From Nannocystis pusilla (GTDB lineage Bacteria; Myxococcota_A; Polyangia; Nannocystales; Nannocystaceae), in the NCBI RefSeq assembly GCF_049337375.1, contig NZ_JBMPIV010000001.1: a stretch of DNA of 64,000 nt, one strand, 5' to 3'. The position numbers and the translations under genes were made by a program. Position 1 is the first letter of the stretch; every line of letters starts with the position of its first letter. Below the pieces are notes generated by a model, which saw nothing but the letters and a program-made list of their open reading frames with translations, had not been told where the DNA came from and searched no databases. Below, in pieces: positions 11,311-31,851 of the stretch.

Positions 11311-12313
11311 AGACGCCGTTTTGGGCGGCGGCGGGAAGTAAACCCGGCGGCGCTGCGCTGGCAAGTCGGCCCGATGTGAGCGGCACGGGCTTATTTTCCG
11401 GCGACAGGACGGTCACAGGAGTGAATCGGGGGCGAACAGAGGTCGGTTCGGTCGCCGCGCAGCCGCGAAAGCGGCCGTCCTCCGGCGATCGGCGTCGATC
11501 TGGGCCCGCATGACGGCCCATAGGTGCGGCTCGGCCAGGGTTGATCCCAGGCAATCGCGGGGATCGCGCGGAGGCACCGGGGCGGGCAGATCCGGCCCGC
11601 TCGGCTCGGGCGGCGCGCGCTCCGGCTCGGGCTCGGGCCGCGGCGCGACGTCCGGCAGACCTGGGTCGTCCGGAGACGGTAATTCACGGACCGGCGTGGG
11701 GGTGATCCGCAGTCGGCGACGGCGTTGCATGGGATCGGATCTGCACTGAACACCCAATCAGTGTCCAGCGATCACCGAGGCTGCCCTGAACTCTTGATCA
11801 GAGGCAGACAAACCAAATCGCGCGGCGCAAAACTGCGCGGACGAGCAGATAGGCCCCTGTAGCGGCCCGCGGGCCGTTTCGGGGCCGGGGCGGAGACGCG
11901 CCTGGAACGGCGCGAAGGGCGGGGAGCGGCAGCGCGCCGAGCTGGTCTTCGGGACAGGGAGATCGCCTCGGCAGGCGTCGCGGACGCCGGGATCGAGGCG
12001 CAGGGTTCCGCGCAATGGCGCGAGCCGCGTCGGCTCACCGGGCGCGACCATGGCGAGCCGGCGAAAGCGACGGGCGCCGCGAGCGCCGGGCCCCGCTCGA
12101 CGGCGCTGCACAGGGCTGAACAGGCGTGGGCGGTGCGGGGCTGCGGGGGGCGAGCCTCGGGTGCTGTACGTCGGCGACGCCGCCGGCGACGGCGACTACA
12201 GCAGCGCGGAGCTCGGGGCCAGGACGGTCGACGCCCGGGTCAGCGCGAGCGCCGGTCGGCCCGGTGCACGACCTCTGGCCTGCTCGGGGGCGAGTCACCC
12301 GCGAGGGCGATTT

Positions 12314-12392
12314 CGGGGCATGTCTCGGAGGACATGTCCCGGCGGCGCGGCGCTTGGGGACATGTCTCGGAGGACATGTCCTGCGCGCCCTG
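12314..12392. repeat. CATG-core 14-bp repeat array (ggggcatgtctcggaggacatgtccc ... ggggacatgtctcggaggacatgtcct) abutting the rlmE stop
   Basis: Seen in sequence. Confidence 0.8.
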
Positions 12393-13013
12393 TCAGGGCC
12401 GGCGGACGGTGGCGTTGGCCTTGAGGCCGCGGCCGACCAGGTACTGCTCGGTGCTGGTGGTGCGCGAGTTCTTGGCGTGGTAGGGGCGCGCCTCCTGGAA
12501 GGTGGCGCGGAAGCGCTTGAGCAGCTCGCCGAAGCCGCCGCCCTGGAACACCTTGGCGACGCAGTGGCCGCCGGGGCGCAGGACCATGCAGGCGATGTCG
12601 AGGGCGCGCTCGGCCAGGCCCTCGCTGCGGACGACGTCGGTGTGGCGGTCGCCGGTGGTGTGCGGGGCCATGTCGCTGAGGACGACGTCGAACGGCTGCA
12701 GCTCGGGGGCGGGGGTCCACTCGAACACGTCGGCGACGCGGTGCTCGACGTGGGCCGGGAAGCTGAGCACGACCGGCTTGAGGTCGATGCCGAGGACGTA
12801 GCCGGTCTCGGTCACGCGGTCGCCGGCGTACTGGATCCACGAGCCGGGCCAGCAGCCGAGGTCGAGCACCCGCGCGCCCTGGCGCAGGATGTGGAACCGC
12901 TTGTCGATCTCCTCGAGCTTGTAGACCGCGCGCGCGGCGTAGTTCTCTTGCTTGGCGCGCAGGTAGGCGGCGTCGTTGCGGTGGGCCTTGTCGCTGAGGC
13001 GGTGGCGGGTCAT
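12393..13013 (-). CDS. rlmE: 23S rRNA (uridine2552-2'-O)-methyltransferase RlmE/FtsJ
   Basis: SAM-binding motif (VLDLGCWPGSWIQ) and conserved K-D-K-E residues in context. 206 aa. Confidence 0.85.
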   Translation of the reverse strand: MTRHRLSDKAHRNDAAYLRAKQENYAARAVYKLEEIDKRFHILRQGARVLDLGCWPGSWIQYAGDRVTETGYVLGIDLKPVVLSFPAHVEHRVADVFEWTPAPELQPFDVVLSDMAPHTTGDRHTDVVRSEGLAERALDIACMVLRPGGHCVAKVFQGGGFGELLKRFRATFQEARPYHAKNSRTTSTEQYLVGRGLKANATVRRP

Positions 13014-13110
13014 GGCGTGCGGCTTAAGCAGCCGAGCCGGCGCGTGGCCGGCTCGAGGGAGGTGGCTCCAAGGACATGTCTCGAAGGACAGGGCCTTCGG
13101 AGCAGGGGTC

Positions 13111-13782
13111 TCAGCCCTTGTTGTTGCCGGCCTTGATGGCGGGCTTGACGGCGGCGCGGATGGTCACGAAGCCGTTGTTGGCGCCCGGGATCGGGCCGCG
13201 CACGAGGATCAGGCCGCGCTCGGCGTCGACCTTGATGACCTCGAGGTTCTGCAGGGTGACGCGCTCGTGGCCCATGTGGCCGGTCATGCGCTTGCCGCGG
13301 TGGACGCGGCCGGGGGTCTTGCGGCAGCCGATCGAGCCGCCGTGGCGGAAGAACTCGTGCTGGCCGTGGCTGTTCTTCTCGCCCTCCATGTTGTGGCGCT
13401 TGATGACGCCCTGGTAGCCCTTGCCCTTGGAGGTGCCGGTGATGTCGACGCGGGCGCCCTCCTTGAACAGGTCGGCGCCGAGCTGGCTGCCGACCGGGTG
13501 GGCGGCGAGCGCCGCGGCGGGGACGCGGAACTCCTTGTGGACGTAGAAGGTGCCGACCTTGGCGGCCTCGGCGGCGCCCTTCTCGGGCTTGCTGGCGCGG
13601 TTGGCCTTCTTCTCGGCGAAGCCGACCTGCAGGGCCGTGTACGTGTCGCGCTCGGCGGTGCGGTGGGCGGTGACGGTGTTGCCCGTGACGTGCAGGACGG
13701 TGACGGGGACGCGGTCGCCCTCGTCCTTGAACACCTGCGTCATTCCAAGCTTTTTGGCGATGAGACCGATCTGGAAGTTCAT
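13111..13782 (-). CDS. rplC: 50S ribosomal protein L3
   Basis: MNFQIGLIAKKLGMTQVF..GKGYQGVIKRHN..GGSIGCRKTPGRVHRGKRMTGHMG are strongly conserved L3 motifs. Located outside any S10 operon (see findings). Confidence 0.85.
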   Translation of the reverse strand: MNFQIGLIAKKLGMTQVFKDEGDRVPVTVLHVTGNTVTAHRTAERDTYTALQVGFAEKKANRASKPEKGAAEAAKVGTFYVHKEFRVPAAALAAHPVGSQLGADLFKEGARVDITGTSKGKGYQGVIKRHNMEGEKNSHGQHEFFRHGGSIGCRKTPGRVHRGKRMTGHMGHERVTLQNLEVIKVDAERGLILVRGPIPGANNGFVTIRAAVKPAIKAGNNKG

Positions 13783-13926
13783 TGTGCTCCGGAGGACTGC
13801 GCGCGCGGCTTCCTTCACGTTGGAATCAGCGAAGAGCGAGGCGCCGCAGGGACGGGGAAGGTGCCCGCGATCGCGCCGGGCGTCAACCTGCGGGCGCGCC
13901 GGGGGCGGGGCTGCGGCGGATTTGCC

Positions 13927-14745
13927 TCACGCGCTCGCGGGGGCCGGCAGGCGGAAGAAGGCGCGGGCGTTGGCCCCGGCCTGCACGGCCAGGGCGGCCG
14001 GATCGTCGCGCCGGACGCCGGCGAGGTGCGCGCAGGTGAAGGCGACGTTGGCCGGCTCGTTCTTGCGGCCGCGCACGGGCACGGGGGCCAGGTACGGGGC
14101 GTCGGTCTCGAGCAGCAGGCGATCGGCGGGGCACAGGCGGGCCGCGTCGCGCAGGCCCTCGGCCTGGGGGAAGGTGGCGATGCCGGAGAAGGACAGGAGG
14201 TAGCCGCGGGCCAGCCACTGCTCGGCCTCGGCGGGGGTGCCGGTGAAGCAGTGGACGACGCCGCCGCGCGGGAGGGCCGGGGCGTCGTCGAGGATGGCGA
14301 GGGCGTCGGCGTGGGCGTCGCGGATGTGCAGGACCAGCGGCTTGTCGAGGTCGCGGGCGATCTCGCGGTGGGCGGCCAGGGCGCGTTTTTGCGCGTCGGG
14401 CGTGCTGTTGTTGTAGTGGTAGTCGAGGCCGGTCTCGCCGACGGCGACGACCTTGGCGTCGCGCGCGAGGGCGGCGATCTCGGCCAGAGCGGCCTCGTCG
14501 GCCTCTTTGGCGTCGTGCGGGTGGATGCCGACGGCGGCGAACAGGTGGGCGTGCGGGGCGACCAGGGCGACGGCCCGCGGGGCGCTGGCGCGCGAGCAGC
14601 CGACGTGGATCATCTGCACGACGCCGGCGTCGGCGGCCCGCTGCAAGGTGGCGGCGAGGTCGTCGATCATCGGCGGGTAGTCGAGGTGGCAGTGGGTGTC
14701 GACGAGGCCGGGGAAACGGGGCGGACGCGGCGCGGGCATGATCAA
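13927..14745 (-). CDS. tatD: TatD family hydrolase
   Basis: Metal-binding motifs DTHCHLD, ..GETGLDYH.., ..LHIRDA.., ..HCFTG.., ..ETDAPYL. Confidence 0.85.
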   Translation of the reverse strand: MIMPAPRPPRFPGLVDTHCHLDYPPMIDDLAATLQRAADAGVVQMIHVGCSRASAPRAVALVAPHAHLFAAVGIHPHDAKEADEAALAEIAALARDAKVVAVGETGLDYHYNNSTPDAQKRALAAHREIARDLDKPLVLHIRDAHADALAILDDAPALPRGGVVHCFTGTPAEAEQWLARGYLLSFSGIATFPQAEGLRDAARLCPADRLLLETDAPYLAPVPVRGRKNEPANVAFTCAHLAGVRRDDPAALAVQAGANARAFFRLPAPASA

Positions 14746-23540: not shown

Positions 23541-23822
23541 AGGGCGGCGAAGCGGCGGGCGCGGGGCCGCTCGAAGACGGAGCGGCGCGGGCTGCTCAGG
23601 GCGGCGTGGGCGTGAGCGCCGGGGCGAGGCGGGCTCGCGCGGGCGCGCGAGGCGGGGAGAAGTGGGTCGATGTCGGGGCCGAGGCGCCGGCGGGCCGTCC
23701 GCCGACCGTGAGGCGGCGGGGGCGGACTGGCAGGTGCGGGGAGCCTCGATAGCCTTCGCCGAGGCGCAGGCGACGTCGCGGGGCGAGGCGCGAGCGCGGG
23801 GCCGCCGGGGAGAGGACACGCC

Positions 23823-24197
23823 ATGGAGATTCGTCGCTGTCGTCGGGGGTTCGTGTTCGTGGGACTGCTGCCATGGATGGTCTCGTCGGGCTGCGAGGAG
23901 GTGCAGACATTCGGCGACGACGCGGACGAATGGGACGGGACTGCGACGAGCGAGGCGGAGCCGCCGGCCGCGCGCGGCGGGAGCTCGATGCAATCGCAGC
24001 ACGGCCTGACGTGCAGCAACCGCTGGGCCGAGGATTGGGGGGCCACGAATTGCGCCGGCACGCCCGGGGTGAAGTGGCGCCTGAAGGTGCGCTGCTGGTG
24101 GCACGGCGAGCGTCTGGGGCCGTGGCGGTCCGGCCCGGGCTCGGACCGCATCACGTGCAGCCTCGGCGCGCAGCGCTCGAGGGTGGTGTGGGGCTGA
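23823..24197 (+). CDS. possible small Cys/Trp-rich lipoprotein
   Basis: MEIRRCRRGFVFVGLLPWMVSSGCEE.. carries a signal peptide plus lipobox. GC3 is lower than neighbouring genes and no homolog was recognised. Confidence 0.3.
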   Translation: MEIRRCRRGFVFVGLLPWMVSSGCEEVQTFGDDADEWDGTATSEAEPPAARGGSSMQSQHGLTCSNRWAEDWGATNCAGTPGVKWRLKVRCWWHGERLGPWRSGPGSDRITCSLGAQRSRVVWG

Positions 24198-24276
24198 TCC
24201 GCGCCCGCGGCGGAGGCGGTCGCGCAGGCACGCGGGTGGCCTGGTTGCGCGCGACGCCGGCGGGTACCATGCGCCG

Positions 24277-25963
<1,687 letters not shown>

Positions 25964-25997
25964 CGCGCGGGCGAGGATAGCAAGGCGGGCCGGGCAT

Positions 25998-26741
25998 CTA
26001 CGCCAGTTGTGTGATCATATCGCGGACGGCAAAGGCTTTTATGCATTGACCAAGATTGAGCGCCGTCGCACCTGCTTGGTACACCTCTGAGAAGATCCCC
26101 AAGAGGTGCAGACGCGTTCTACCGGCCATGAATGTTCCGTGTTTATCCGTGTAATTCCCGCGATCGAACAGCAGGACGGGGCCGCCCGAGTTGCCACGGA
26201 ATCCTGCGATGTCGATCAAGAATTCGGCTCTCCCTCGCCAATCGACCCATAGCGGTACCGCGGTCGTTCCACGGCGCGCGACCGGCAAGTAGTTTACCTC
26301 ATCGTAGAAACCATAGGGATAGCCGATCAGCGTAACGGATTCGATGCCCGCACACTGCTGTTCCAACTGAACATTATCTAAGACGTCGTTGAAACTGAAT
26401 GAAGCGAAATCGAGCATATCCGCATTCAACCCGTAACGAACGATAATCGAGGCGAAGGATAATATGCAGAGATCAAGACCGCCGGGGTGATCAATCCAGT
26501 CACTCCGGAGCGTGATGAGGCGCTGGAGATCCGTGCTTCCTCGAAGGTGCATGAAGAATTCGATGCTCGATGCACCGTCGACGACATGGCGATTTGTGAC
26601 GAGGAATGTGTTTGCGGGCGAGCATTTCGGGTCGGACGCGACAAAAAAACTTGTTCCTGTAGTCGCGTCCGTCCGAGGGAGGACGGTGGTATAGAACAAT
26701 CGGGCAGCGAAGTCGGCGCACATGATTGCACCTTGGCACAA
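25998..26741 (-). CDS. trypsin-like (S1/chymotrypsin-fold) serine peptidase, no signal peptide, in a low-GC island
   Basis: Catalytic triad context: ..VTNRHVV.. (His), ..LDLCIL.. (Asp), ..GNSGGPVL.. (Ser, GDSGG-like). Local GC is about 52% against about 70% in the flanks. Confidence 0.7.
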   Translation of the reverse strand: MCQGAIMCADFAARLFYTTVLPRTDATTGTSFFVASDPKCSPANTFLVTNRHVVDGASSIEFFMHLRGSTDLQRLITLRSDWIDHPGGLDLCILSFASIIVRYGLNADMLDFASFSFNDVLDNVQLEQQCAGIESVTLIGYPYGFYDEVNYLPVARRGTTAVPLWVDWRGRAEFLIDIAGFRGNSGGPVLLFDRGNYTDKHGTFMAGRTRLHLLGIFSEVYQAGATALNLGQCIKAFAVRDMITQLA

Positions 26742-26829
26742 GGGGCATACGCCACGGCGTACCGCTCGCGGAACGCGCTCGGTAGGCGTTCTGGGGAGTC
26801 GCCAATCGGATGGCGCCGTGCCGGCGCGA

Positions 26830-28275
26830 TCAGCCCGGCGGGGGGGTGACGCTCTTGAGCTGGCCGCCGGTCATGTCGGAGTAGACGTAGTGGTCGCCGG
26901 CGACGGGGATGTTCTGCATCGCCGGGACGTTGAGCGGGTCGATCTTCCAGGCCCAGCCCTGCTGGTCGACCAGCCACACGAAGCCGTCGACGTCGACGCT
27001 GACGCCGATCGGGGTCGAGCACTGGGCGAGGGTGTGCTGGGCGACGAGAGTGCGGGTGGGGACGTCGATCTCGACGAGGCCGCAGGGGCTGTTCGAGGCG
27101 ACCCAGGCGTGGTCGTCGTGGTCGATGGCCATGCCGCGGTGACAGGCGTTGGTGCCGGCGACCGAGATCCACTGGCTGGTGGCGACGTCGTAGGTCGAGA
27201 CGGGACCGGAGCAGCCGGCGAGCCACGGGTTGCCGTTGCGATCGACGGTCATGCCGTAGGTCTGGATGTTGGAAGGCTGGGGGATCCGCGTGAGCGTGAT
27301 CGGGTTCTCGTTGGCGTTGACGCGCGCGAGCTCGCCGCGCAAACCGGTGAACCAGGCGTTGCCCAGCGGATCGAGGGCGCCGCCGTAAGGGGCGTAGCCG
27401 CTGCCGTTCCACGCCACGGCCTCGAGCGACTGCTCCATCACGCCGGTGGCGCCGTCGAGCCGGACCATGTTGGCAGAGCCGGCCTGGAGGGCGCCGAAGC
27501 CGAGCCAGACCTTCTGGTTCTTGTACGTGCAGGTGGCCTTGTCGTAGTCGCCGATGGTCCAGGTGATGCCGCGCGGACCCTCGATGTACTGGCCCGACCA
27601 GTTGGCGTGGACGAGGGTCCACACGACGCACTCGTCGGTGCCCCACGGCTTGATGTCGGCGACGCTGGTGGAGGTGGTGATCTGGCCGTCGCCGTTGAAG
27701 TCGATGCAATCGGCGATGTTGGCGGCGACGGCGGTGGAACGCCCGGTGCCGCGCGCGTTGACGACGACGAACCGTCCGTCGCCCGAGACGGCGGTGCGCG
27801 AGACGCTCTCGGCGGCGCCGCTCGGACCGGTGAGGTAGCGCGCCTCCTCGACGAGGGTGCGCGTGTTGATCTTGGAGACGAGGCCGTCGCTGGTGGCGGG
27901 GATCCAGATGAAGCTCTCGTCGATGTCCATGTCGCCGGCGCAGCCCATGCCGCCGTCAGGCGTGACGCCGAGGTCGAACTTGGGGCCGCCGTTGGTGGTC
28001 GGGCTCGACATCGAACCGTTGGTGGTGGTCGGCGGGTCGCCGCTGGCGCTCTCGGTCTGACCGACAGTGCCGTCGGTGCCCTCGCTGGCGCTCATCGAAC
28101 CCCCCTGCGTGGGGTCCGTCATGGTGGTCTCGGGCGGCAGGGTGAGGCTGCCGATGCTGGTCGCCACGGTGGTCGGAGCCGTGGCGCTGGCCGAGTCGGC
28201 GCGCCCGCTGTCACCGCAGGCGACGAGGAGACCGGCGACGGCCATGGATGCGACCGGAAAACGAGGGGAGACCAT
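26830..28275 (-). CDS. hypothetical lipoprotein with predicted beta-propeller-like repeat region and Thr/Ser-rich linker
   Basis: LLVACG lipobox, T/S/G-rich linker, long C-terminal region rich in G/W/N/D with repeated ..G..W.. segments. Confidence 0.55.
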   Translation of the reverse strand: MVSPRFPVASMAVAGLLVACGDSGRADSASATAPTTVATSIGSLTLPPETTMTDPTQGGSMSASEGTDGTVGQTESASGDPPTTTNGSMSSPTTNGGPKFDLGVTPDGGMGCAGDMDIDESFIWIPATSDGLVSKINTRTLVEEARYLTGPSGAAESVSRTAVSGDGRFVVVNARGTGRSTAVAANIADCIDFNGDGQITTSTSVADIKPWGTDECVVWTLVHANWSGQYIEGPRGITWTIGDYDKATCTYKNQKVWLGFGALQAGSANMVRLDGATGVMEQSLEAVAWNGSGYAPYGGALDPLGNAWFTGLRGELARVNANENPITLTRIPQPSNIQTYGMTVDRNGNPWLAGCSGPVSTYDVATSQWISVAGTNACHRGMAIDHDDHAWVASNSPCGLVEIDVPTRTLVAQHTLAQCSTPIGVSVDVDGFVWLVDQQGWAWKIDPLNVPAMQNIPVAGDHYVYSDMTGGQLKSVTPPPG

Positions 28276-28855
28276 GGGGCGATGAACGCACGATCACCCT
28301 CATGAGGGCAAGTACCCGACCGAACCGATCGAGACGGTGATGTTCGGATCCATCGTCGGGGGAGCGCCGAGGGGCCTCGCATGCGGGGGTCCCGTGGTCG
28401 CGTCGGCGACGCGCTCGCGACGAACAAGTGTCCGGCGAGAGACACGAGACGAGAGGCGGGGTCGCGCGGCGACGGGCGCCATGCGAATGCGCGGAGCTCG
28501 GGGCGCAGGCGAATGCGATGAGGGGCCGTGAGAGGGCGCCAGGAGTGCTTGCGGCGAGGTTCGCGGGGCGGAGGGCGCGGTCCGTGCGGCAGGGGTGATT
28601 GCAGCGAGGGCGCACGGTCGACGCATTTCGGGCCGGGACGGTGGACCGGCGTCGGGGGCGCGGTCGGGCGCGGGGATCTCCGCAGGGGCTGCCCGCCGGC
28701 GTGGGTCGCGCCCAGGGCGAAAATCCCGGGGTCGATCGCGGGGCAGTCGGGGCCGGACGACCCGGGAGCTGCCGCGGAGCAGGGGATCGTCCGCGCGGCC
28801 CGGGTCCGCGGGCGGCTGCAGGGGCGTGCATTTCGGGCGCGGCGCCGCGGGCGGG

Positions 28856-30505
28856 ATGGGTATCATCGCGCCGATGTCGAGCTCTCGCCGCTCCTTCCTC
28901 GCGCTCACGGGGCTCTGTGGGGCCGAGGCGCTGCTCCACGGCCCGCGCGCGGCATCGGCCGGACAGCAGCCGAGCCGGATCCCGGCGCCGAAGTCGGCGC
29001 CCGCGAGCGCAGACGCGGGCATGGCCCTGCTGGCGGCGAGCCGCTTGCTGGCCGACGAGTCGCTGCTGCGCACGGCGCTCGAGGCGGCGACGAAGGCCGG
29101 GGCGAGCTACGCCGACGCGCGCCTGGTGCTGATGCGCCGCGAACGGGTCGGCGTGCGCGACGACCACGTGAGCGGGATCGGTCGCAGCGAGGACTACGGG
29201 GTCGGTCTGCGGGTGATCGCGGACGGCGGCTGGGGCTTCGCGGCGACGGCGGAGCGCAGCGCGAAGGCGGTCGAGGGGATCGCCAGGGCCGCGGTGGCGA
29301 TGGCCCGCCAGAGCGCGCTGCTGATGCCGCAGCCGGTGACCCTGGCGCCGGCGCCGGTGCTGCAGGGCGGCTGGGTGTCGCCGTTCCAGGTCGACCCGTT
29401 CTCGATCGCGCCGGCCGAGAAGGCGGAGCTGCTGCTGGCGGCGGCCCGCGCGGCGCTGGCGGTGCCCGGGGTGGCCCACGTGGACGCGAGCGTGGCGTGC
29501 GTGCGCGAGGAGAAGCTGGTGATGACGAGCGAGGGCTCGCGGGTCCACCAGATCTTCTTCCGCGTGATTCCGGGGCTGACCGCGACGGCGATCGATCGCC
29601 GGCGCGGTCGCTTCGCCGGGCGCGACCACGAGGTGGCGCCGATGCTGGCGGGCTGGGAGCACGTGACCGCGGCCGACCTGGTCGGCAGCGCGCCGAAGAT
29701 CGCCGAGGAGGCGCTGCAGAAGCTGCACGCGGCGCCGGCGGTGCCGGGCAAGAAGCACGCGATCCTGGCGCCGTCGAACCTGTGGCTGACGATCCACGAG
29801 AGCATCGGCCACTCGACGGAGCTCGACCGGGCGCTCGGCTACGAGGCGAACTACGCCGGCACGAGCTTCCTTCAGCCCGACAAGGCGGGCAAGGTCAAGA
29901 TCGGCAGCGAGATCGTGAACCTCGCGGCCGACCGCACGCAGCCCGGCGGCCTGGCGACGACCGCGTGGGACGACGAGGCGGTGGCGTCGCAGCGCTGGGA
30001 CCTGGTGAAGAAGGGGACGTTCGTCGGCTGGCAGACGACGCGCGACCTGGCGGCGGCGGCCGGCGAGCCGGCGAGCCGCGGCTGCAGCTACGCCGACAGC
30101 TACGCGAGCGTGCCGTTCCAGCGCATGCCCAACGTGAGCCTGCAGCCGGGCACCGAGGGCTACACGACGGAGGACCTGATCTCGGCGACCGACGACGGGG
30201 TGCTGATCACGGGCCGCGGCAGCTGGTCGATCGACCAGCAGCGCTACAACTTCCAGTTCTCGGGCCAGTTCTTCTGGGAGATCAAGAACGGGCGGTTGAC
30301 GCGGCCGCTGCGAGACGTGGCGTATCAGGCCAACACGGTCGAATTCTGGAGCTCGTGTGACATGCTCGGAGGGACAGACACGTACCGCCTCGGCGGCAGC
30401 ATGAGCGACGGCAAGGGCGAACCGTCGCAGAGCAACGCGGTCAGCCACGGGTGCCCGCCGGCGCGCTTCGTCGTCAACATCCTCAACACCGGGGGTGACA
30501 AGTGA
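28856..30505 (+). CDS. tldD: TldD-family metallopeptidase with twin-arginine (Tat) signal peptide
   Basis: MGIIAPMSSSRRSFLALTGLCGA Tat motif. Conserved TldD regions (..HESIGHSTELD.., ..GSWSIDQQRYNFQF..). Confidence 0.85.
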   Translation: MGIIAPMSSSRRSFLALTGLCGAEALLHGPRAASAGQQPSRIPAPKSAPASADAGMALLAASRLLADESLLRTALEAATKAGASYADARLVLMRRERVGVRDDHVSGIGRSEDYGVGLRVIADGGWGFAATAERSAKAVEGIARAAVAMARQSALLMPQPVTLAPAPVLQGGWVSPFQVDPFSIAPAEKAELLLAAARAALAVPGVAHVDASVACVREEKLVMTSEGSRVHQIFFRVIPGLTATAIDRRRGRFAGRDHEVAPMLAGWEHVTAADLVGSAPKIAEEALQKLHAAPAVPGKKHAILAPSNLWLTIHESIGHSTELDRALGYEANYAGTSFLQPDKAGKVKIGSEIVNLAADRTQPGGLATTAWDDEAVASQRWDLVKKGTFVGWQTTRDLAAAAGEPASRGCSYADSYASVPFQRMPNVSLQPGTEGYTTEDLISATDDGVLITGRGSWSIDQQRYNFQFSGQFFWEIKNGRLTRPLRDVAYQANTVEFWSSCDMLGGTDTYRLGGSMSDGKGEPSQSNAVSHGCPPARFVVNILNTGGDK

Positions 30506-31851
30506 GCGCGCAGTCGCCTTTGAGCCCGACCGAGGCGCGGGCGCTGGTCAAGTCGGCGCTGTCCGCCGCGAGCTTCGAGGACGTGAGCCTGCGAGTGACG
30601 GCGCGGCGCACGGCGTACCTGCGGTTCGCCGCCGGCGCGCCGACGACGTCCGGCGAGGCGGCGCGCTTCGAGGTGTCGGTGACGGCGGCGAAGGACGGGC
30701 GGGTGGCGACGGTGTCCGGCACCGGGCGCGACGCGGCGTCGCTGCAGGCGCTGGTGCGCGAGGCGGAGGCGCTGGCCAAGCTGGCGCCGAAGGACCCGGA
30801 GCACGAGCCGCCGCTGGGGCCGCAGCAGTACGCGAAGGTGGCGGCCCGCGACGCGAAGACGGCGGAGGTCGGACCCGAGGGGCGCACCGAGGTGGTGGCG
30901 CGGGTGCTGAAGGTGGCGCGCGAGGCCAAGCTGGTGGCGTCGGGGATCGTCGAGCACGAGGACGGGGTGACGGTCCTGGCCAATCGGACAGGTCTGTTCG
31001 CGCTCCACGCGGCGACCGAGGCGTCGCTGACGACGACGATGCGCACGCCCGACGGCAAGGGCAGCGGCTGGGCCGGCGGGGCGTCGCACCGCCTGGCCGA
31101 GCTCGACGCGCCGGCGCTGGCGCGGCGGGCGGCCGACAAGGCGACGATGTCGAGCCAGGGCGCGGACGCGCTGGCGCCGGGGGCGTACACCGTGGTGCTC
31201 GAGGCGCAGGCGGTGGCCGACCTGCTCGGCTTCCTGGTGTCGGCGCTGCAGGCCCGCGCGGCCGACGAGGGCCGCAGCTTCTTCAGCCGCCCGGGCGGCA
31301 ACGCGATCGGCGAGGCGCTGTTCGACCCGCGGGTGACGCTGCGCTCCGACCCGGCCGACCCGCGCTGGCCGTCGATCCCGTTCGCGGGCGACGGGCTGCC
31401 GCTGCCGGCGACGACGTGGATCGAGCGCGGGACGCTGAAGGCGCTGGCGTACAGCCGCTTCTGGGCCCACAAGCAGAGCAAGCCCGCGCTGCCGGGGCCG
31501 CGCTCGATCTTCCTCGCGCCCGCGGACCCGGCCGAGGGCAAGGACCTGCTCGAGCTGGTCCGCGGGGTCGAGCGCGGGGTGCTGGTGACGCGCTTCTTCT
31601 ACAACCGCATGCTCGACCCGCGGCAGATCCTGGCGACCGGGCTGACCCGCGACGGCACGTTCCTCATCGAGCAGGGGAAGATCGCGCGGCCGGTCAAGAA
31701 CATGCGCTACAACGAGAGCCCGGCGGCGCTGCTGAAGAACCTGGTGGCGATCGGCAAGCCGGAGCGCACGGCCGGCGAGGGGATGGTCGCGGTGGTGCCG
31801 CCGCTGGTGGCGAAGGACTTCCACTTCGCCAGCGTCAGCGACGCGGTGTGA
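30502..31851 (+). CDS. pmbA: PmbA/TldE-family metallopeptidase partner
   Basis: TldE-like sequence. Start overlaps the tldD stop by 4 bp (operon). Confidence 0.8.
   Translation: MSAQSPLSPTEARALVKSALSAASFEDVSLRVTARRTAYLRFAAGAPTTSGEAARFEVSVTAAKDGRVATVSGTGRDAASLQALVREAEALAKLAPKDPEHEPPLGPQQYAKVAARDAKTAEVGPEGRTEVVARVLKVAREAKLVASGIVEHEDGVTVLANRTGLFALHAATEASLTTTMRTPDGKGSGWAGGASHRLAELDAPALARRAADKATMSSQGADALAPGAYTVVLEAQAVADLLGFLVSALQARAADEGRSFFSRPGGNAIGEALFDPRVTLRSDPADPRWPSIPFAGDGLPLPATTWIERGTLKALAYSRFWAHKQSKPALPGPRSIFLAPADPAEGKDLLELVRGVERGVLVTRFFYNRMLDPRQILATGLTRDGTFLIEQGKIARPVKNMRYNESPAALLKNLVAIGKPERTAGEGMVAVVPPLVAKDFHFASVSDAV

Follow-up and report, generated by a model that had tools for sequence, protein, structure and literature searches.

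A recently acquired low-GC island encoding a leaderless, stand-alone trypsin-fold protease in a strain-variable slot of Nannocystis pusilla

How did a single gene of foreign composition come to lie between two conserved genes of a large myxobacterial genome, and what might it do there? The question is raised by a 64,000-nucleotide stretch of DNA from Nannocystis pusilla (contig NZ_JBMPIV010000001.1 of RefSeq assembly GCF_049337375.1; this whole stretch is referred to here as the window), in which an initial annotation, made without database searches, had pointed to a low-GC island with a leaderless trypsin-like serine peptidase at 25964-26829, coordinates that match the gap between its two neighbouring genes to the base. 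We are close to certain of the descriptive part of the answer, namely that the island holds a foreign, recently acquired and intact gene for a complete cytoplasmic S1 protease belonging to a mobile family of stand-alone proteases. A defence or conflict role for this protease is a more tentative proposal, to which we give an even chance or slightly less. The features on which the argument rests are the following.

25986..26825, no strand: foreign low-GC island of 840 bp between homology breakpoints, filling the whole interval between two conserved genes
25998..26723, minus strand: protease gene, 241 amino acids plus a TAG stop codon; stand-alone HtrA-like S1 serine protease of PDC-S45 / phrog_7688
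26830..28275, minus strand: conserved upstream flank, a gene of native GC for a 481-amino-acid lipoprotein-like product (LVAC lipobox), 82-98% identical in six Nannocystis genomes
25268..25963, minus strand: conserved downstream flank, a gene of native GC for a 231-amino-acid multi-pass membrane protein, 87-94% identical in Na p29, RBIL2 and N. punicea

The island stands out from the rest of the window by composition. In 300-bp windows the GC content is 0.51-0.57 at 26000-26700, compared with about 0.69-0.73 on either side, and is back up by 26900; in 800-bp windows this is the only spot in the whole 64 kb below 0.66. The global minimum in 840-bp windows (0.561) lies at 25972, the next-lowest such window away from the island has a GC content of 0.656, and the island itself, at 0.567, is 5.9 standard deviations below the mean outside it (0.726, standard deviation [sd] 0.027; z = -5.9). 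The drop described in the initial annotation is therefore real at that z score, and its figure of about 52% needs adjusting: GC content is 54.5% for the gene, 56.7% for the island as a whole and 51% at the local minima. Codon usage deviates as well. The GC content at third codon positions (GC3) is 0.63 in the protease gene compared with 0.85-0.99 in the other open reading frames (ORFs) of the window that have a coding-type GC3 pattern, and the codon adaptation index, with 40 window genes as the reference, is 0.278 compared with a host mean of 0.763 (sd 0.084, z = -5.8). Codons that are rare in the host make up 33% of the gene, as opposed to 5% in the mean host gene and 13% in the most extreme one, bearing out the rare codons initially reported.

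The gene is also missing where an ancestral gene would be expected. We fetched the syntenic regions of six Nannocystis genomes, one per species, by way of the 481-amino-acid neighbour, and a tblastn search of these six relatives did not find the protease gene. Because the flanks are 96.8-97.6% identical to those of N. pusilla Na p29, a strain in which the gene is missing, the protease island arrived after the divergence from Na p29. The recent horizontal acquisition initially proposed is thus upheld both by recomputed GC and codon usage and by the missing gene at the syntenic site in six relatives. A uniform GC profile, or the same gene in orthologous position in all relatives, had been named as observations that would speak against it; the profile is not uniform, and the gene is not ancestral across the relatives.

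Alignment of the DNA to the relatives places the edges of the island precisely. On the side of the lipoprotein gene the breakpoint is at 26826, about 5 nucleotides past the stop codon of the 481-amino-acid gene; on the side of the membrane protein it is at 25985 relative to Na p29, 22 nucleotides ahead of the ATG of the 231-amino-acid gene, and at 25970 relative to RBIL2 and N. punicea. Breakpoints in the genus recur at the lipoprotein stop codon, all genomes diverging about 5 nucleotides beyond it, and the contents of the slot vary as follows.

Window strain: the 840-bp low-GC protease island
N. pusilla Na p29, 11455-14549 of its locus: unrelated 3.1-kb insert, GC 0.555, with a Hanks-type kinase and two orphan ORFs
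N. pusilla Na p29, 13018..13800 of its locus, minus strand: Hanks-type Ser/Thr kinase, 260 amino acids (Pfam Pkinase, 2e-27; PADLOC PD-T4-6 models, 3e-48)
Nannocystis sp. RBIL2 (11758-13913) and N. punicea (about 12018-14128): TPR membrane protein and TPR-AAA+ ATPase
N. exedens and N. radixulma: slot contents and two membrane-protein genes missing; the lipoprotein gene nearly abuts a histidine-kinase gene
N. bainbridge: rearrangement at this point

The window island and the Na p29 island are unrelated by blastn, which found no similarity between them. The slot DNA of RBIL2 and N. punicea (about 2.6-2.8 kb) has a native GC content of 0.72, and its TPR and AAA+ genes are probably older occupants that were lost from both N. 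pusilla strains. Of the two orphan ORFs in Na p29, one (135 amino acids) lies upstream of the kinase and overlaps it; the other (319 amino acids), downstream of the kinase, matched nothing among 5.8 billion clusters or in Pfam and PADLOC, and may not be a real gene.

The island carries no integrase ORF, there is no tRNA within the 64-kb window, and no direct repeats or target-site duplication were found flanking the island; insertion mediated by a tRNA or an integrase is ruled out on these observations. An imperfect inverted repeat was considered as the terminus of an element:

25955-25972 / 26820-26837: inverted repeat I4, 14 of 18 positions complementary (78%)

It too is ruled out, for it lies in flanks that are conserved in relatives without the island, and it is probably a chance occurrence. 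A search of 24000-29000 returned no Rfam match at E <= 1, ruling out a noncoding or retron-type RNA in or near the island. We infer that the island replaced the previous contents of the slot either by homologous exchange through the conserved flanks or by illegitimate recombination.

Some further observations concern the borders of the slot. A run of seven C on the coding strand (26833-26843), at the 3' end of the 481-amino-acid gene, has five C in Na p29, where the change shifts the frame and lengthens the ORF to 507 amino acids; the run is a possible slippage-prone tract and lies exactly at the edge of the variable slot. On the other side, the 231-amino-acid membrane protein has no Pfam match, and its gene is missing at the locus in N. 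exedens, N. radixulma and N. bainbridge. This gene (25268-25963, minus strand) and another membrane-protein gene (24277-25299, plus strand), also without Pfam matches, overlap convergently at their ends; both are missing in N. exedens and N. radixulma, marking a larger and older insertion or deletion beside the slot (23583-25985).

Within the island, the protease gene is preceded by the following signals.

26724..26825, minus strand: foreign leader of 102 nucleotides upstream of the protease, with no independent ORF, Rfam match or sigma-70-like promoter
26729..26734, minus strand: Shine-Dalgarno-like AAGGTG, 5 nucleotides upstream of the ATG, read from the sequence

The ORF initially described, 25998..26741 on the minus strand, exists, and its TTG start at 26741 would give a product of 247 amino acids. 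Because the AAGGTG motif lies 5 nucleotides upstream of it, the ATG at 26721-26723 is the more likely start, and yields the 241-amino-acid product annotated by NCBI. The gene is co-directional with both of its neighbours, and the membrane-protein gene begins 34 nucleotides past its stop codon. Two terminator-like matches occur in the island, both inside the ORF and at chance frequency. The suggestion that a cryptic partner ORF might lie in 26742-26829 failed: ORFs of at least 20 amino acids there overlap the protease or the neighbouring gene, and the island has no second free-standing ORF of that size.

The protein is predicted from its sequence and its structural model to be a leaderless trypsin-fold protease with a full His-Asp-Ser triad. 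Trypsin_2 (PF13365) is its sole Pfam domain (37.1 bits over a cut-off of 27.6, E 6.6e-9, residues 29-195), and the triad of the S1 family, proposed initially, is invariant in an alignment of 16 sequences, at these codons.

26586..26588, minus strand: catalytic His46 (TNRHV motif)
26472..26474, minus strand: catalytic Asp84 (DLCIL motif)
26187..26189, minus strand: catalytic Ser179 (GNSGGP motif)

The family signature GYPxGxYDxxNxLPVxRRGTTA is invariant in the same alignment, and all 19 invariant family positions are kept in the Nannocystis protease. AlphaFold2 returned a complete two-barrel (chymotrypsin) fold with a predicted local distance difference test score (pLDDT) of 89.6 and a predicted template-modelling score (pTM) of 0.88, in which the protease core starts, with its first beta-strand, at about residue 25 and which shows extra N- and C-terminal helices together with a helical insert at residues 90-123. 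Its closest structural neighbours in Foldseek are the protease domains of the HtrA clade (DegQ, DegS and DegP, E about 1e-8), superposing over about 170-179 of the 241 residues at a sequence identity of about 18-21%. No family member has a solved structure, a profile search of the PDB giving only weak matches to HtrA, V8 and Spl (E >= 8e-6), and a search of viral structures in BFVD returned only generic chymotrypsin-like proteases of RNA viruses.

Because there is no signal peptide, PDZ domain or fused sensor, the protease is predicted to stay in the cytoplasm. Hydropathy gives no N-terminal signal peptide (Kyte-Doolittle 15-residue maximum 1.10), and the chain ends 62 residues past the catalytic Ser without a PDZ domain in Pfam; the initial description of a cytoplasmic trypsin fold is in this way supported in silico, by hydropathy and the model, and applies family-wide. 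The protein is 100% identical to an N. pusilla 'S1 family peptidase' and forms a singleton cluster; among 5.8 billion clusters its next-best match is metagenomic and 52% identical. Together with its three nearest relatives it forms a shorter subclade, which does not have the insertion of about 20 residues or the C-terminal tail that are common in the family. Truncation at the edge of the island is ruled out as the reason for its length, in that the closest relatives are equally short and the model is a complete fold.

The search of defence databases that the initial annotation proposed gave a strong match to the PADLOC family PDC-S45, at E 7e-53 (profile PDLC05022; 7.3e-53 for the 241-amino-acid form and 3.4e-53 for the 247-amino-acid ORF), aligning protein residues 6-219 to profile positions 17-242 of 293; all 16 aligned homologues match the same profile. 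The protease also matches phrog_7688, annotated as 'unknown function'. The family is large, with 12,148 representative matches, 2,115 of them (clusters at 50% identity) at E <= 1e-30. The top 149 representatives have a median length of 284 amino acids, their catalytic His lies at about residue 51, and the GxSGxP motif is kept in 146; a hydrophobic N-terminal stretch is present in just four, so that the leaderless single-domain build is a trait of the family. PDC-S45 is one of 145 'phage defence candidates' (PDC) nominated from their embedding in BREX, DISARM or type I restriction-modification (RM) loci (Payne et al., bioRxiv 10.1101/2024.01.29.577857). The only other mention of PDC-S45 that we found in the literature is a PADLOC match in a Sinorhizobium prophage, and a literature search for phrog_7688 returned nothing.

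The genomic contexts of the homologues identify the family as stand-alone proteases that are accessory cargo on prophages, plasmids and integrative elements. In Escherichia coli a 300-amino-acid homologue occurs in just 3 of the 5,426 complete genomes and is invariably carried by an SfII-like prophage, with Rz on one side of it and the HNH/small-terminase genes on the other; phage SfII itself has IS911 directly upstream of a shortened copy. Relatives are encoded by 116 IMG/VR contigs, and in 23 of the 71 such contigs of at least 15 kb the protease gene is no more than 2.5 kb from the contig end. A relative is also carried by 40 plasmids of Actinomycetota, Bacillota and Pseudomonadota, where its typical neighbours are a small recombinase, type I RM genes, or a gene for an MvaI/BcnI restriction endonuclease together with one for a very short patch repair (Vsr) endonuclease. 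Among metagenomic homologues, one adjoins an AIPR abortive-infection gene, one directly follows an integrase, with an XhoI RM system nearby, and one is inside an integrase-TrwC-PIN element. No recurring partner gene was present among the homologue neighbourhoods examined. The proposed link to immunity is accordingly an association, by way of the PDC-S45 match and of mobile contexts that sometimes lie beside RM or abortive-infection genes.

Several smaller observations bear on how the gene travels. Six plasmid or element loci have a gene for a small serine recombinase or tyrosine integrase as the immediate neighbour of the homologue, and at one of these (L022) the integrase gene ends 4 nucleotides ahead of the protease start; this hints at a recombinase-linked cassette as the form in which the protease moves. 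In four unrelated hosts the GC content of the protease gene is below that of its surroundings (0.52 vs 0.61, 0.53 vs 0.66, 0.53 vs 0.62 and 0.57 vs 0.69), a deficit that fits a gene that keeps moving between hosts and that makes the subfamily look foreign in every setting. The closest homologue (52% identical; metagenomic locus L026, 941-1704) is followed by two ORFs of 90 and 165 amino acids without Pfam matches, the former beginning 3 nucleotides past its stop codon; both are missing from the Nannocystis island.

As to its role, the protease is most probably, by our inference, an abortive-infection or exclusion protease, that is, a mobile single-gene conflict module. If it is defensive, it must both sense and execute, because it has no fused sensor and no pro-effector. 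HtrA proteases are activated allosterically and by oligomerisation. The trypsin domains of known defence systems fire upon induced oligomerisation, and defence there depends on the protease (PMC12799240; bioRxiv 10.1101/2025.11.14.688446). By analogy with HtrA and with the trypsin domains of Hachiman and Avs, the Nannocystis protease would be held latent in the cell until a phage-derived or other foreign protein switched it on, through ordering of the active-site loops induced by a substrate or ligand, through oligomerisation, or both; the active protease would then cleave phage proteins or essential host proteins, and infection would stop. Transcription would probably either read through from the co-directional gene upstream or start at an unrecognised promoter of the 102-nucleotide leader. 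A bolder version of the proposal, which we think unlikely on balance but worth stating, is that a sensor-less single-domain protease can be a whole anti-phage system and that the slot is a Nannocystis defence hotspot in which single-gene systems (the protease here, the PD-T4-6-like kinase in Na p29) are exchanged; the protease would then recognise a phage protein directly, as activator or as substrate.

A number of points weigh against a defensive role. The PDC candidates were called untested by their own authors (bioRxiv 10.1101/2024.01.29.577857), another group left them out as unvalidated, and we found no paper testing the PDC-S45 family. All defence trypsin domains that have been characterised by experiment come with a fused sensor and a partner pro-effector, and neither is present here. 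What surrounds the gene in the window is no defence island but a set of housekeeping genes (a TldD/PmbA pair, a histidine kinase, an extracytoplasmic function [ECF] sigma factor and a cytochrome c peroxidase), and the gene is neither embedded in nor next to known defence systems, which was the basis on which PDC-S45 was nominated. No sigma-70-type promoter was recognised in the island. Some homologues also lie among ordinary genes, in places that suit defence poorly: an isolated copy is found among carboxysome and transport genes, and the edge of a carboxysome-shell / CbbQ / NorD(VWA) cluster is the place of the protease in two autotroph contexts, plasmid 1 of Nitrobacter hamburgensis and a contig of a metagenome-assembled genome. 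As for the hotspot, the PD-T4-6 match of the Na p29 kinase is not specific, for any Hanks-type kinase would score, and Hanks-type kinases are numerous in myxobacteria.

Among the other explanations, the strongest competitor, which we consider fairly unlikely and yet by far the most substantial of the four discussed here, is that the protease serves the prophages and plasmids that carry it, degrading host defence proteins, proteins of competing elements or a repressor, and was stranded in the chromosome with no defence role in Nannocystis. The phrog_7688 family is indeed found in at least 116 viral contigs and 40 plasmids, recombinases are often adjacent, and in E. coli the gene is part of the prophage late region; it looks dispensable for the phage, in that the SfII copy is disrupted by IS911 and the phage is still recorded as a complete genome. 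Such dispensability, and a position at the prophage end or as a moron, is equally typical of prophage-borne defence genes, however, and some homologues are, as here, single-gene insertions without a surrounding element; moreover, the Nannocystis gene is intact and has kept every invariant residue with no element to serve. That the ORF is instead a functionless remnant of a decayed insertion, still open by chance, is improbable. An island of just 840 bp without mobility genes, tRNA or flanking direct repeats, the failure to find a promoter-like site and a length of 241 compared with a family median of 284 amino acids would all suit a remnant, whereas the ORF is uninterrupted and has a good Shine-Dalgarno sequence, the 19 invariant family positions are all kept, the model is a complete two-barrel fold at pLDDT 89.6, and the closest relatives (P0003 and P0004) are likewise short (247-253 amino acids), which makes length a trait of the subclade.

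A toxin half of a toxin-antitoxin (TA) or addiction module, whose partner is elsewhere or lost, is suggested by ietAS, in which a serine protease (the toxin) and an AAA ATPase (the antitoxin) form a TA and defence pair, and by the AAA ATPase that relatives hold in the same slot, which matches the PADLOC IetA model at E 1.5e-30. We judge this very improbable: that match reflects the AAA+ fold in general, no genome examined has both the AAA gene and the protease, IetS is a subtilisin-type protease and the window protein has no PADLOC IetS match, and the homologues have no conserved neighbour. That the protease belongs to the ordinary housekeeping or quality-control set of Nannocystis, and simply has an odd composition, is in effect excluded by the pattern of presence and absence. 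Its HtrA-like fold would suit protein quality control, of which such folds are typical, but the gene is missing from six of six relatives and has foreign codon usage, and its product has no PDZ domain or signal peptide and scores 14.8 bits against the Do/DegP model, compared with a cut-off of 416. The conflict module is the most likely reading, with a defence role as a candidate only.

The remaining side observation of the window concerns the TldD/PmbA metallopeptidase pair at 28595-31851, which has native GC content, is conserved in all relatives and is unrelated to the island.

Whatever its role, the locus is a clean textbook case in which a large myxobacterial genome has very recently gained a single gene, in a slot that varies between strains, and an entry point to a large, uncharacterised family of leaderless trypsin-fold proteases on prophages and plasmids. 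The presence and absence of the protease in two N. pusilla strains provides near-isogenic material. If a bare protease domain protects against phage, its latency and recognition would be a new and simple case to dissect, and if the bolder version outlined above is right, protease-based immunity would gain a minimal model and the myxobacteria their first mapped defence hotspot; if the family is not defensive, the gene is ordinary mobile cargo.

Compared with known systems, the protease shares its core fold with HtrA, DegP, DegQ and DegS (MEROPS S1C) and differs in having no PDZ domain, signal peptide or membrane anchor and a predicted location in the cytoplasm as opposed to the periplasm; it failed the Do-family model TIGR02037 (14.8 bits, cut-off 416.2), and is HtrA-like in its core but not an HtrA family member. 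Hachiman (HamMAB), Avs1/2/4 and Lamassu likewise have a cytoplasmic trypsin-fold serine protease, which in these systems acts in anti-phage immunity, as part of a fusion with a sensor or regulator and always next to a pro-effector partner (an MBL nuclease, Pepco or an alpha/beta-hydrolase; PMC12799240; bioRxiv 10.1101/2025.11.14.688446, 10.1101/2025.09.03.673762), whereas the window protease is a single domain with no sensor and no partner ORF. No adjacent pro-effector gene is present, the flanking genes being conserved core genes with or without the protease. The PADLOC LmuA, Avs and Ham models do not match the window protein, and the LmuA protease model gives weak matches in five family homologues (E 6.6e-8). 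To the reverse transcriptase-protease fusions of retron type XI there is a weak likeness in the protease domain only (E 3e-4 in the window protein and as low as 7.5e-8 among homologues); the window protease has no reverse transcriptase domain, and its island has no noncoding RNA or Rfam match. On these features the protease falls outside the HtrA family, and it belongs neither to the protease/pro-effector modules nor to the retron type XI fusions. With PDC-S45 it has in common a single-gene architecture, Trypsin_2 as the only domain and a strong profile match, and the Nannocystis member differs in lacking the insertion and the tail and in standing alone among housekeeping genes. It does not fall outside known categories: it is a member of S1/Trypsin_2 and of PDC-S45 / phrog_7688, a known but uncharacterised family.

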